From assembly GCA_965207915.1 (NCBI GenBank), contig OZ242304.1, forward strand, positions 406,196 to 470,195: 64,000 bases of DNA, written 5' to 3'. Each line of letters begins with the position of its first letter. The stretch's first letter is position 1. The stretch comes from Chloroflexota bacterium. Lineage in GTDB: Bacteria; Chloroflexota; UBA11872; VXNJ01. The position numbers were made by a program, and so were the translations under genes. The notes under the pieces are model-generated. The model was not told the origin of the DNA, did not search any database, and saw only the letters and a list, made by a program, of their open reading frames with translations. Below are positions 33,563 through 42,407 of the stretch, piece after piece.

Positions 33563-36037
33563 TTAGACGGCCGCGCCGGCCCGCTGGCGGGCCAGGTATT
33601 TGAAGCGGCCGGACTCGGCGTCGACCAGTAGCTCCTGATCGGGAGCCAGCTCGCCTCCGAGAAGCATTCTGGCGGCCGGGTTCTCGATCCTGCGCCTGAT
33701 CGTCCGGGCCATCGGACGGGCACCGTATTCCGGATCCCAACCTTCTTCCAGCAGCAATTCGCGGGCCGCCGCAGAGATCTCCAGTTCGACTCCCTGGGAC
33801 GCCAGGCGCTCGCGCAGGTCGCCCAGTTGCACGTCGATCACCGAGCCAACCTCGGCCCGGGTCAGCGAGCGGAAGATGATCACCTCGTCGATTCGGTTCA
33901 GGAACTCCGGAGGGAAGTGCCGGCGGAGCCGGCCCAGCAGGGAGGTCCGCATCTCCGCGTGATCGGGGCCTTCGCCGTCGGTTTCGGTTCCGAATCCGAC
34001 CCGATCGCGCCGGACCAGATCGGCCGCCCCGACGTTGGAGGTCATGATCAGGATGGTGTTGCGGAAATCGACCGTTCGGCCCTGGCCGTCGGTCAGCCGA
34101 CCGGCGTCGAGCACCTGCAGCAAGGTATTGATTACCTCGGGGTGGGCCTTCTCGATCTCGTCAAAAAGGATGACTTGGTAGGGCCGACGCCGAACGGTCT
34201 CGGAAAGCTGACCGCCCTCCCCGTAGCCGACGTATCCGGGCGGAGCGCCGATCAGGCGGGAGACGGTGTGGCGCTCGCCGTATTCGGTCATGTCCACGCG
34301 GACCATCGCGTCAGGGTCGTCGAACATGAACTGCGCCAGCTGCCGGGAAAGCTCGGTCTTGCCCACGCCGGTCGGCCCCAGGAATATGAACGAGCCCATC
34401 GGCCGATTGGGATCGGAGAGCCCGGAGCGTGAACGGCGCAGGGCATCGGCGACGGCGGTGACGGCCTCGTCCTGGCCGATCAGGCGGCGATGGATCTCCT
34501 CCTCGATGCGCAGGAGCTTTTGCATATCGCCCTCCAGCATCGCCGCCACCGGAACCCCGGTCGCCTCGGACACTACCGAGGCGATGTCGTCCGCCCCGAC
34601 GGTCTCGGAGATGTTGTGTTCGCTTAACCAACCGGCCCGTTTTTCGGTCAGTTCGTCGCGCAACCGGATCGATTCGGACTTGTAATTGGCGGCCGACTCG
34701 TACTCGCGGTTTTGCCAGGCCTCCTCCTCCAAACCCTCCAGTTCGCGCAAACGCCCATCAAGCGCGTGCAGGTCTTCCGGCATATTGAAGATCTGCAGGC
34801 GCAATTTCGCCGCCGCTTCGTCCATCAGGTCGATCGCCTTGTCCGGCAGGAACCGGTCGGTTATGTAGCGGTTGGAGAGCCGCGCCGCCTGCTCTAGCGC
34901 GTCATCGGAGATCTTGAGTCGGTGGTGGTTCTCGTACTTGGGTCGCAGGCCGCGCAGGATGTCGACCGTTCCGTCAACGTCCGGCTGGTCGACGTAGACC
35001 TGCTGGAAGCGGCGCGCCAGGGCCTTGTCGCGCTCGATGTGGCGCCGGAATTCATCCAGCGTGGTCGCTCCCACGGCCTGCAGCTCACCGCGCGCCAGAG
35101 CGGGCTTGAGCAGATTTGCGGCGTCGATCGCGCCTTCAGCCGAACCGGCCCCAACGACGTTGTGCAGTTCGTCGATGAACAGGATGATGTTGCCGCGCGA
35201 ATTGATCACCTCTTCGATGACCGACTTGAGCCGGTCTTCGAACTCGCCGCGGAACTTGGAACCGGCCAGCATCTGGCCGATGTCTAGGGCGAGTACGCGC
35301 CGACTGGCCAGCAGTTCGGGAACATGGCCGTCGACGATGCGCTGGGCCAGGCCCTCGACGATCGCGGTCTTGCCCACCCCCGGTTCCCCGATCAGGACCG
35401 GGTTGTTCTTGGTCCGGCGCGAGAGGATCCGCATGACGCGGTCGATTTCGACCTCGCGACCCACGACCGGGTCGATTTGGCCGCGCCGGGCCAGGGCGGT
35501 GAGGTCAGTGCTGTAGCGGTCCAGCGCGGCGTAGCGGGATTCGGCGGTCTTGGACGAGGCGTCCTGAGAACCGCGGATTTCGCGAATCGCGGCCAGAGTC
35601 TTCTGCCGGGTGCAACCCAGTTCAAGCAGTATCTTGGCCGCGTCGGCATCGCGCAGCGCCAGGATGGCCAGAAATAGGTGTTCGGTCGAAATGTAACTGT
35701 CGCGCAGGCTGTCCGCCTCGGCGGCGGCGCGGTCGAGCAGCTGCTTGGCGCGCGGCGTGATGAATATCTGTTCCACGGCCGAATCAGAGCGGCGCTCGGC
35801 AGAAGCCACCTTTGGCTTGCGATCCAGCACCCCGTTGACCCGCGAGCGCACGAAATCCGGGTTAATGCGCATCCTCTGCAGGATCCGAACCGCCGAAGAC
35901 TCGCGCGTCTCAAGCAGCGCCAGGAGGATGTGCTCGGCGTCGAACTGGGTGTGTCCGAGGTCGCTCATGATCTGATTCGCGCCGACGATTACTTCCTGGG
36001 CTTTTTCGGTGAGCCGCCCAAACCCGGCATCTGTCAT
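33563..36037 (-). CDS. clpB: Hsp100/Clp ATPase with two AAA+ modules (ClpC-like N-domain and short M-domain; sits where clpB lies in HspR regulons)
   Basis: 824 aa; two Walker A GxxGVGKT motifs, N-terminal [11 protein letters not shown]...[16 protein letters not shown] repeats; middle domain only ~100 aa. Confidence 0.85.
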
Positions 36038-36095
36038 TTGTCTATTCCCGTTTACTCAATGGACTTTCTGAATCACCCGCGGCTAATTGGCCCGG

Positions 36096-36497
36096 TCACT
36101 GCGTGGCGCGCCGCAGGATCCGCTTGAGGCGCGCTATCTCGTTGTGAAGCTGGTTGACCTCGCGCCGATGGGCAAGGGCCTGCTCATCGAGTTCGATCCG
36201 ATGCCGGCGGCGCATCTCCTCGACGCGGTCGTGCAGCTCGAGGATGATTTCGACCCCCGACAGGTTGGCCCCCTCGTCCTGAGTCAATTCACGTATCCGC
36301 CGCACGCGCTGCACGTCGCGCATCGAATACATTCGCACCGATCCGTCGGACCGAATGGGATTCACCAGCCCGACGCGCTCGTAGTGGCGCAGGGTCTGCG
36401 GATGGGTGCCGGTCATCTTGGCGACCACCCCGATGAAGAACCCTTTCACGTCGTTGTCGTCGCGCGGCCCGCGCCGGCCGCGCCGGTCATCTGCCAT
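36096..36497 (-). CDS. hspR: heat-shock transcriptional repressor HspR (MerR family)
   Basis: 133 aa MerR HTH (GVVAKMTGTHPQTLRHYERVGLV) immediately downstream of dnaK-grpE-dnaJ. Confidence 0.85.
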   Translation of the reverse strand: MADDRRGRRGPRDDNDVKGFFIGVVAKMTGTHPQTLRHYERVGLVNPIRSDGSVRMYSMRDVQRVRRIRELTQDEGANLSGVEIILELHDRVEEMRRRHRIELDEQALAHRREVNQLHNEIARLKRILRRATQ

Positions 36498-37437
36498 TGC
36501 TTGCCTCCAGATCCTCCCCGCGCAGCTTCGCCAGGTCCCGGATCAGATCCCGCTGCTGGCCATCCAGCCCCTTGGGAGTGGTCACGTTCACTTTCACGAA
36601 CAGGTCTCCCCGCTCGCCTTTGCCCATTTGCGGCAGCCCCTTGCCGCGCAGCCGCAGGCGCGCGCCCTGAGATACCTCGGGCGGCACCCGGACCCGCAGC
36701 TTTTCGCCGCCCAGCGTCGACACCACTGCGCGCGTGCCCAGGGCCGCCGCCGTCATCGGGATTGAAATATCGGTCTCGAGATTTACCCCGTTGCGGCGCA
36801 TGCTGGGGTGATCGAGCACCCTGACCTTCAGGAATAGATCGCCGCGGGTGCCGTCCGGACGCACGCCGCCTTCGCCGGCCAGGCGGATCCGCGCCCCGGG
36901 GCGGACCCCGGGCGGAATCTTGACCCGCAGGCGCCGGTTGGCGGTGCCACCGATCCCGTCCGGCGACCGGACCGAAATCATCCGCTGGGAACCGTTGAGG
37001 ATCTCTTCCAGGGTCACGTCGACTTCGTGCGCCACGTCGGCGGCGCGGGCCCCGGCGGACTGGCGCGCGCCCCGGGCGCCGGCGGCGGCGCCAAAACTGC
37101 CGAAGAGCTGCTCGAAGAAATCGGAGAACCCGGCGCCGCCCATCGGCCCGTGCCCGCCGAAGCCGGGGCCCCCGAAACCGGCCTGGCGCATGGCCGCCTC
37201 GAACGAGCCGTGCTGGCGGTAGGCCGAACCGAACCGGTCGTAGCGGGCCTTCTTCTCCGGATCGGAGAGGACTTGGTGGGCCTCGTTGATTTCCTTGAAA
37301 CGGGCCTCCGCCTTGGGGTCCCCGGGATTGACGTCGGGGTGGTACTTGCGCGCCAGTCGCCGGTAGGCGCGTTTGATCGCGTCGGCGTCAGCCGAGCGGT
37401 CGAGCTCAAGAATCTTGTAGTAATCGCGGTACTCCAC
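36487..37437 (-). CDS. DnaJ-class co-chaperone lacking zinc finger (DnaJ2/CbpA-like)
   Basis: 316 aa; J-domain with HPD, G/F-rich linker, no CxxCxGxG repeats. Confidence 0.85.
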   Translation of the reverse strand: MEYRDYYKILELDRSADADAIKRAYRRLARKYHPDVNPGDPKAEARFKEINEAHQVLSDPEKKARYDRFGSAYRQHGSFEAAMRQAGFGGPGFGGHGPMGGAGFSDFFEQLFGSFGAAAGARGARQSAGARAADVAHEVDVTLEEILNGSQRMISVRSPDGIGGTANRRLRVKIPPGVRPGARIRLAGEGGVRPDGTRGDLFLKVRVLDHPSMRRNGVNLETDISIPMTAAALGTRAVVSTLGGEKLRVRVPPEVSQGARLRLRGKGLPQMGKGERGDLFVKVNVTTPKGLDGQQRDLIRDLAKLRGEDLEASNGR

Positions 37438-42323: not shown

Positions 42324-42325
42324 AT

Positions 42326-42354
42326 AGTGTACTTATTGAGCGTGTTGATGTCAA
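42326..42354 (-). promoter_or_regulatory. sigma70-type promoter for lon(-dnaK) : TTGACA-N17-TACACT, overlapped by a HAIR-like inverted repeat (TTGAcaT-N7-gCTCAAt)
   Basis: Minus-strand reading: aaagTTGACAtcaacacgctcaataagTACACTatttgcac; a near-consensus hexamer pair in an AT-rich divergent region. Confidence 0.55.
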
Positions 42355-42407
42355 CTTTTATGACATTCGGTTGATTAAGCGGCTCGCGCGCCAATAAAAT
42401 TCCCGCG

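Follow-up and report, generated by a model that had tools for sequence, protein, structure and literature searches.

A probable HspR-autoregulated operon, lon-dnaK-grpE-dnaJ-hspR-clpC, behind a single promoter with a putative built-in operator in a sponge-associated Chloroflexota bacterium

The inverted repeat known as HAIR, the operator of the heat-shock repressor HspR, reads CTTGAGT-N7-ACTCAAG, with TTGAGY-N7-ACTCAA as its minimal form (PMC6102357, PMC2687793). In Streptomyces coelicolor and Streptomyces albus the HspR regulon comprises the dnaK-grpE-dnaJ-hspR operon, clpB and lon (PMC2687793, PMC13033682), and the only three promoter regions known beforehand as targets in S. coelicolor, those of dnaK, clpB and lon, were all confirmed by chromatin immunoprecipitation on microarrays (PMC2687793). 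Streptomyces DnaK stabilises the repression by HspR and titration of DnaK relieves it, as Bucca et al. (2003) are cited in PMC6102357 and PMC2687793. HspR of Deinococcus radiodurans, as summarised in PMC2687793, controls dnaK, dnaJ, grpE and lonB as well as clpB, and in Helicobacter pylori a HAIR-like repeat at the promoter of hspR lets the repressor control its own expression (PMC6102357). No relevant description of HspR in Chloroflexi or Dehalococcoidia was found in the literature searched. Here we describe a chaperone and protease gene cluster in a 64,000-nucleotide stretch of Chloroflexota DNA (contig OZ242304.1 of assembly GCA_965207915.1, positions 406,196 to 470,195; hereafter the window), which probably constitutes one six-gene HspR-autoregulated operon, lon-dnaK-grpE-dnaJ-hspR-clpC, served by a single sigma-70-type promoter with a built-in operator.

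The six genes, whose identities were assigned with curated models, are given below in 5' to 3' order with their window coordinates.

39906-42308, minus strand: lon (LonA), 800 amino acids from the likely GTG start (open reading frame 39906-42323); TIGR00763, 819 bits against a cut-off of 608; Pfam domains LON_substr_bdg, AAA, Lon_lid and Lon_C.
37931-39841, minus strand: dnaK (Hsp70, 636 amino acids); NF001413, 971 bits against 648; Pfam HSP70.
37440-37934, minus strand: grpE (164 amino acids) with a GTG start; Pfam GrpE, 122.6 bits.
36487-37437, minus strand: dnaJ, class B or CbpA-like, 316 amino acids; Pfam DnaJ and DnaJ_C.
36096-36497, minus strand: hspR, 133 amino acids, MerR-family heat-shock repressor; NF047375; Pfam MerR_1, MerR and MerR_2.
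33563-36037, minus strand: ClpC-type Hsp100, 824 amino acids; two Clp_N repeats, first nucleotide-binding domain, short M-domain, second nucleotide-binding domain with VGF loop, D2-small domain.

The lon product carries the features that define LonA, namely an N-terminal substrate-binding domain, a single AAA+ module, an S16 protease domain and an equivalog score above the cut-off. Its reading frame as called by program begins at a TTG (42323) that is not kept in relatives; the alignment of the relatives and the 800-residue call of NCBI make GTG 42308 the likely start. A gap of 64 bp (39842-39905) separates lon from dnaK. The GTG start of grpE lies on the dnaK stop, an overlap of 4 nt (GTGA); dnaJ follows grpE after 2 bp and shares 11 nt with hspR, which in turn is 58 bp away from the Hsp100 gene. 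The six head-to-tail genes, the 64-bp gap and both overlaps are all as a first-pass annotation of this DNA had them. The cluster thus combines one strand, short or overlapping junctions and one promoter, the hairpin-bearing lon-dnaK gap being the sole exception. An identical HspR protein occurs on sponge-metagenome contigs and in two NCBI metagenome-assembled genomes (GCA_009838085.1 and GCA_028875665.1), and the source of the window, judged from its sequence, is an uncultured, sponge-associated Chloroflexota bacterium.

Streptomyces offers the nearest parallel. The repressor family, the position of hspR after dnaJ in the dnaK operon, an N7 inverted repeat overlapping the promoter and the functions placed under known or, here, predicted control (the DnaK system, Lon and an Hsp100) are common to both. 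In contrast to Streptomyces, the three units are fused here behind one putative operator with lon first, a zinc finger is missing from DnaJ, the Hsp100 belongs to the ClpC type and not to ClpB, the left operator arm is TTGACA and not TTGAGT, and the host belongs to Chloroflexota and not Actinomycetota. The proposal made at first pass, that the arrangement departs from the described actinobacterial dnaK operons, is supported for Streptomyces, which has three separate HspR-repressed units. As summarised in PMC2687793, D. radiodurans likewise has a non-actinobacterial HspR over DnaK-system genes, a lon gene and an Hsp100. The genes of that regulon are dispersed with a site of their own each, hsp20 and ftsH are included, and the Hsp100 is ClpB.

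A gene for a CbpA-like J-protein without zinc finger directly upstream of a MerR-family gene recalls cbpA-hspR of H. pylori and Campylobacter jejuni, and also cbpA-cbpM of Escherichia coli. The cbpA-hspR operon differs in having no dnaK, grpE, lon or Hsp100 gene, and in H. pylori the region protected by HspR measures 70-80 bp and regulation is shared with HrcA, whereas no CIRCE element was found anywhere in the window. The Firmicute operon ctsR-mcsA-mcsB-clpC resembles the cluster in placing a ClpC-type unfoldase last in an operon that encodes its own heat-shock repressor, but this repressor is CtsR and neither a DnaK system nor lon is present; conversely, the Chloroflexota operon is devoid of the adaptor and kinase genes of the Firmicute one and of a CtsR box, for which the window held a chance-level match only. 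The dnaK-grpE-dnaJ-dafA-clpB operon of Thermus thermophilus, like the cluster described here, encodes a DnaJ without zinc finger and ends in an Hsp100 gene, but it is not known to contain lon or hspR (dafA stands in that place), and a true ClpB is its Hsp100. Both the components of the locus and its logic already occur in the HspR/HAIR systems described in Streptomyces, Mycobacterium, Deinococcus and Helicobacter. It departs from them in four points, namely the regulon behind one predicted operator with lon first, a left arm that is the -35 hexamer, ClpC in place of ClpB, and the occurrence in Chloroflexota, and no account of this combination was found in the literature searched; the locus is a variant of a known heat-shock circuit and should be no great surprise to the specialist. 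The genes are present, unremarked, in many public metagenome-assembled genomes.

The proposed control region lies immediately upstream of lon.

42326-42354, minus strand: sigma-70-like promoter, TTGACA (42354-42349), 17-nt spacer, TACACT (42331-42326), 10 of 12 consensus positions.
42335-42355, minus strand: putative HspR operator (HAIR variant), gTTGACA-TCAACAC-GCTCAAt, assigned on position and conservation.

A consensus scan of 33000-43000 with a threshold of at least 9 of 12 matches, which detects sigma-70-type promoters only, gave one promoter-like site on the minus strand, at 42354-42326, and three on both strands together against 1.0 +/- 0.9 in shuffles; the sole strong promoter of the cluster is thus where the first-pass annotation had put it. 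Its -35 and -10 hexamers are kept in all relatives. The left arm of the putative operator is the -35 hexamer itself, and the right arm, (G/A)CTCAA, falls seven bases on within the promoter spacer. The claim that a HAIR-like inverted repeat overlaps this promoter could be sustained in part: the repeat is real, overlaps the promoter and is conserved, but its likeness to HAIR taken alone stays at chance level. The window site TTGACA-N7-GCTCAA agrees with the minimal Streptomyces consensus at 9 of 12 positions, and TTGAGY-N7-ACTCAA with up to three mismatches was found 40 times in the window, where 36 +/- 7 are expected by chance; a HAIR consensus match was therefore rejected as stand-alone evidence, and the weight of the site comes from its position and conservation.

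Searches with the HspR protein yielded few sequences (six close relatives in a single-protein scan of genome contigs and 21 proteins in a word-indexed search), and for this reason loci were sampled more widely through homologues of Lon and the Hsp100. When the composite pattern NTTGACA-N7-RCTCAAN-N(2-5)-TANNNT was fixed and applied to loci of about 20 kb each, exactly one match per locus was obtained in 15 of 15 loci, always on the coding strand and immediately ahead of the gene that opens the hspR unit, the rough chance expectation being about 1e-3 per 20-kb locus. These loci also include units of the form dnaJ-hspR-clpB (L014) and dnaK-dnaJ-hspR (L015, L017), and L022 and L024, both examined only once the pattern had been set, conform to it. 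Spacer positions 1-5 are free to vary (0.05-0.33 bits). In all loci, those read without the pattern included, CTCAA keeps its place in the spacer. Since TTGACA can be explained by promoter function, only the right arm counts as independent evidence for an operator. In several relatives the site reaches 11-12 of 14 positions of CTTGAGT-N7-ACTCAAG, with the N7 spacing kept everywhere. A leave-one-out position weight matrix scored the lon site at 26 bits against at most 17.5 elsewhere in the window; matches at 18859 and 15529 (17 bits) were rejected, as they lie inside the coding sequences of rpoB and rpoC (1170 and 1453 amino acids; 13469-21361, minus strand).

It could be argued that the spacer motif (A/G)CTCAA belongs intrinsically to the promoter or is bound by some other regulator, and that its resemblance to HAIR is coincidental. 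We regard this as very improbable: the weak, chance-frequency HAIR match of the window and a left arm indistinguishable from a consensus -35 hexamer would suit such an explanation, but the motif accompanies hspR in five contexts (lon-first, dnaJ-hspR-clpB, dnaK-dnaJ-hspR, hspR-clpC and variants), becomes a near-full HAIR in several of them (CTTGACA-N7-ACTCAAG, 12 of 14) and has the spacing of HAIR. Moreover, the ClpC gene of L025, with no hspR adjacent, has no such motif upstream, and neither CIRCE nor a CtsR box points to another regulator.

Some of these units deserve individual mention. L026 (7386-10448) carries an hspR-clpC pair behind CTTGACA-N7-ACTCAAG-N3-TATCAT, found by a relaxed scan, with a ClpC 57% identical to that of the window, so that the linkage of HspR and ClpC also exists outside the six-gene operon. 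In L025 the ClpC homologue stands alone and the sole relaxed match lies on the opposite strand. The dnaJ-hspR-clpB unit of L014 (149-4816) encodes a true ClpB of 856 amino acids and has a 12/14 HAIR site at 603, and a second MerR-family gene (117 amino acids) diverges from the same intergenic region.

Eleven other Chloroflexota lineages, with Lon down to 50% identity, share the order lon-dnaK-grpE-dnaJ-hspR-Hsp100. Among the loci that have it are L008-L012, with a Lon 69-93% identical to that of the window, and L019, L020, L021, L022 (a Tara Oceans contig) and L024, with one 50-58% identical. On this comparison the arrangement is not unique to the window but conserved as a trait of one lineage of marine Chloroflexota. 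The Lon gene of a Limnocylindrales bacterium (protein 48% identical) is found in the ordinary tig-clpP-clpX-lon context, so the arrangement is lineage-specific and not phylum-wide. That lon heads the hspR operon, as first suggested from the window alone, gains support from the shared order in these loci and from the composite site before lon. In the five more distant loci (L019-L022 and L024) just 10-13 bp, holding the Shine-Dalgarno sequence, separate lon from dnaK, which suggests that co-transcription is ancestral. The other junctions in L019-L021 measure 13-35 bp, and the gaps contain nothing but Shine-Dalgarno sequences. In the three distant loci whose sequence past the Hsp100 gene was read (L019-L021), this gene is immediately followed by a strong GC-rich hairpin, which carries a T-run in L019 and L020. 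With tight spacing, one promoter and a terminal terminator, co-transcription is the most economical reading.

Neither the consensus scan nor the weight-matrix scan revealed an internal promoter-like or HAIR-like site before dnaK or the Hsp100 gene; an internal start with a canonical HAIR upstream of dnaK, which the first-pass annotation had named as the contrary outcome, thus finds no counterpart in these scans. A candidate second HAIR in the hspR-clpC spacer (36041-36059) has a perfect left arm, TTGAGT, but its right arm is degenerate and it is not conserved in relatives; it was rejected, and the half-site is probably due to chance. The lon-dnaK spacer of L011 (about 6540-6580) holds ACTCAAG followed by TTGACA, that is, the arms reversed and no -10 hexamer, in this locus alone. 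Rfam families gave two sub-threshold chance matches only in 33000-43000.

The longer lon-dnaK gap of the window contains a conserved hairpin.

39864-39889, minus strand: hairpin GUCCCUUUGG-CCAAGA-CCAAGAGGAC in the lon-dnaK spacer, without U-tract.

The hairpin recurs at the same position in six of seven relatives of the sponge subclade. In its alignment, a covariation sample of only eight related sequences, 80.6% of cells are paired, seven of nine pairs show compensatory changes and none of 500 shuffles was as good, while the single-sequence folding z-scores (-1.4 to +0.4) are not significant. It lies 7 nt upstream of GAAAGG (39857-39852), the Shine-Dalgarno sequence of dnaK, which it leaves uncovered. 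Functions as an RNA thermometer or an intrinsic terminator were rejected: the Shine-Dalgarno sequence lies outside it, a U-tract is missing and the z-scores are not significant. The 64-95 bp spacer with its hairpin is an insertion between lon and dnaK in the sponge subclade; that the hairpin acts by partial termination, or on the processing or stability of the transcript, is our guess.

The same gap is what an arrangement in at least two transcription units would build on. Lon would then be monocistronic, the hairpin a terminator lacking its U-tract, and dnaK-grpE-dnaJ-hspR, with or without clpC, would be read from an internal promoter that went unrecognised and may lie within the 3' end of lon, leaving the conserved operator in control of lon only. 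A spacer of 64-95 bp with a conserved GC-rich hairpin and a promoter scan confined to sigma-70-type signals are compatible with this, but no promoter-like or HAIR-like site occurs within the gap or ahead of it, a U-tract is missing from the hairpin, the gap shrinks to 10-13 bp in L019, L020, L021, L022 and L024, and hspR would be left without a recognisable operator, although every other hspR unit examined has one at its first gene. We consider this division improbable.

The start of lon shows further local features. In L020 (9964-10003), L022 (9965-10003), L024 (9963-10003) and L021 (9960-10003) the lon ATG lies 6-11 nt after the -10 hexamer, and the lon mRNA of these four loci would therefore be leaderless or nearly so; in the window's subclade the GTG at 42308 lies 17 nt after that hexamer. 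Around this start (42300-42325) the stretch CACAGTAAGAAAGTGATAGCC(T/A)CCCTGACTCCTGA is near-invariant at the nucleotide level among the window and L008-L010, loci whose Lon proteins are 88-94% identical, and is conserved above the adjacent coding sequence; this may reflect a translation-initiation or other RNA-level constraint.

The 316-residue dnaJ product consists of a J-domain, a G/F-rich stretch and a C-terminal domain and holds no cysteine at all, so the zinc finger (CxxCxGxG) is necessarily absent, in agreement with what had been noticed at first pass. Its match to TIGR02349 is split around the zinc-finger positions and stays at 257 bits, below the cut-off of 377, whereas the short-DnaJ model PRK14299 and CbpA models match it end to end. 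Class A DnaJ proteins have four CxxCxGxG motifs; lacking them, the protein is class B or CbpA-like. The hspR product scores 107.7 bits with the HspR equivalog NF047375 (cut-off 105) and is matched by MerR-type helix-turn-helix models, and its gene stands directly after the dnaJ/cbpA gene in the chaperone operon, an adjacency common to all relatives.

A CbpA-like DnaJ beside a small MerR-fold protein also resembles E. coli cbpA-cbpM, and the CbpM model does match the window HspR weakly (E = 2.7e-4), which could indicate that the protein is mainly a CbpM-like modulator of the adjacent DnaJ and not the transcriptional repressor of the operon. This seems extremely unlikely, given that the CbpM score is 20.8 bits against a cut-off of 138 while the HspR equivalog passes its own and helix-turn-helix models match, that a conserved inverted-repeat putative operator lies at the operon promoter, and that cbpA-hspR of H. 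pylori shows the same pairing with a true repressor (PMC6102357).

The Hsp100 at the clpB position is ClpC-type by architecture and not ClpB, as several comparisons indicate. It aligns with the ClpC proteins of Bacillus subtilis and Staphylococcus aureus in one co-linear stretch (859 bits; residues 6-813 against 3-802 of B. subtilis ClpC), whereas ClpB structures and the ClpB model match it in two pieces only. The ClpB model TIGR03346 gives 1065 bits against a cut-off of 1232, skipping profile positions 446-530 (about 84, the M-domain); all operon homologues fail it as well (1060-1122) and the ClpB of L014 passes (1400). Compared with this true ClpB, about 62 residues of the M-domain are missing from the window protein, so that the full-length ClpB M-domain which would have spoken against the first-pass assignment is not what the alignment gives, and an insertion of 13-19 residues with [VL]GF is present. 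Both the deletion and the insertion are common to all eight operon homologues, and [VL]GF is absent from the L014 ClpB; RVGFG of the window protein aligns with YVGF, the ClpP-docking loop of B. subtilis ClpC.

For the N-domain (residues 1-158) the top 33 PDB matches are ClpC or ClpC1 N-domains at 52-66 bits, against 25-30 bits for the ClpB proteins of E. coli and T. thermophilus. The ClpC-like N-domain and short M-domain foreseen at first pass are thus borne out by alignments, PDB matches and model scores alike. The nearest 120 database homologues measure 765-847 amino acids, all but one of them 810-847, and those with a name are ClpC or AAA ATPases of Chloroflexota. Identities as ClpB, ClpA, ClpV, ClpK or ClpG were rejected, every model remaining below its cut-off. 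A UVR motif, for which a check had been proposed, was not detected: residues 415-495 match no Pfam family, even at E = 10; what the M-domain does carry is a conserved AWQxR[DE]YExAAN motif. The ClpC-type features suggest a partnership with ClpP, and among the annotated parts of the window no clpP, mecA or mcsB was seen.

In the working model, for which we infer co-transcription, HspR binding, DnaK co-repression, ClpP partnership and a role of the hairpin, HspR, the product of the fifth gene, would exclude RNA polymerase by binding to the composite site and so covering both the -35 hexamer and the spacer; being located at the promoter of its own operon, the site would make the operon repress itself. 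DnaK, the product of the second gene, would help HspR to bind, by analogy with Streptomyces. Under heat or proteotoxic stress, unfolded proteins would titrate DnaK away and the six genes would be released together. In the sponge subclade the inserted hairpin spacer probably tunes the ratio of lon to dnaK transcript, through partial termination or mRNA processing or stabilisation.

Several considerations weigh against this single-operon model. The putative operator of the window agrees poorly with the Streptomyces consensus (9 of 12), at a quality of match met at chance frequency, and the invariance of TTGACA could reflect promoter function alone. The promoter scan is blind to promoters other than sigma-70 ones, the hairpin-bearing 64-bp gap could terminate some or all transcripts, HspR clears its curated cut-off by a narrow margin (107.7 against 105), and DnaK co-repression is carried over from Streptomyces.

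A bolder version of the model would hold that the whole HspR regulon has collapsed into one self-repressing proteostasis operon in which ClpC replaces ClpB. ClpB is recruited by DnaK through motif 2 of the M-domain, which the ClpC-type protein lacks; here damaged proteins would go to degradation by Lon and ClpC-ClpP and not to DnaK-ClpB disaggregation, an operon protease could degrade HspR, and in the sponge symbionts the hairpin would uncouple Lon from chaperone dosage. We advance this tentatively and think it rather unlikely as a whole; if true, degradation of HspR by the operon's own protease would sharpen induction.

The window also holds a second, paralogous grpE/dnaJ set, as had been pointed out at first pass, 8 kb away.

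25256-25957, minus strand: second grpE (233 amino acids), housekeeping-style set.
24159-25256, minus strand: full-length zinc-finger dnaJ (365 amino acids), followed by prmA and mtaB; the set spans 21955-25957.

Its order is Bacillus-like but without hrcA or dnaK, and as the window has no CIRCE either, the dnaK of the HspR operon may serve both sets of co-chaperones. Directly upstream of the second grpE lies a gene for a 730-residue NHL-repeat, ScyE-like protein (25954-28146, minus strand); an NHL-repeat protein also adjoins the stand-alone ClpC of L025. A conserved open reading frame of 604 amino acids (29929-31743, plus strand) belongs to no family in Pfam or NCBIfam.

On the other side of the lon promoter, a divergent promoter-like site, TTGATT-18-TAAAAT (42371-42408, plus strand), ends 7 nt before the ATG of the open reading frame 42408-43727 (439 amino acids), which suggests a leaderless mRNA. 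The product has no Pfam or NCBIfam family, its N-terminus looks by eye like a Tat signal with a lipobox, and at the position of its gene L019-L021 and L024 carry one for an SBP_bac_1 solute-binding protein. The two -35 hexamers are only 16 bp apart, and HspR could therefore affect this gene too.

Overall, the case shows that the dispersed, three-promoter regulon of Streptomyces is reducible, as the model reads it, to a single operator and a single transcript, and it brings Chloroflexota within the range of the HspR/HAIR circuit. Annotators may take it as a warning not to call an Hsp100 gene beside hspR clpB from its position. Such a minimal system, with one site, one repressor and the co-repressor encoded on the same transcript, would suit tests of the DnaK-titration model. 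Predicted HspR control of a ClpC-type unfoldase in place of ClpB raises the question of how aggregates are handled without an operon-encoded ClpB, a question that concerns abundant, uncultured marine and sponge-associated bacteria.

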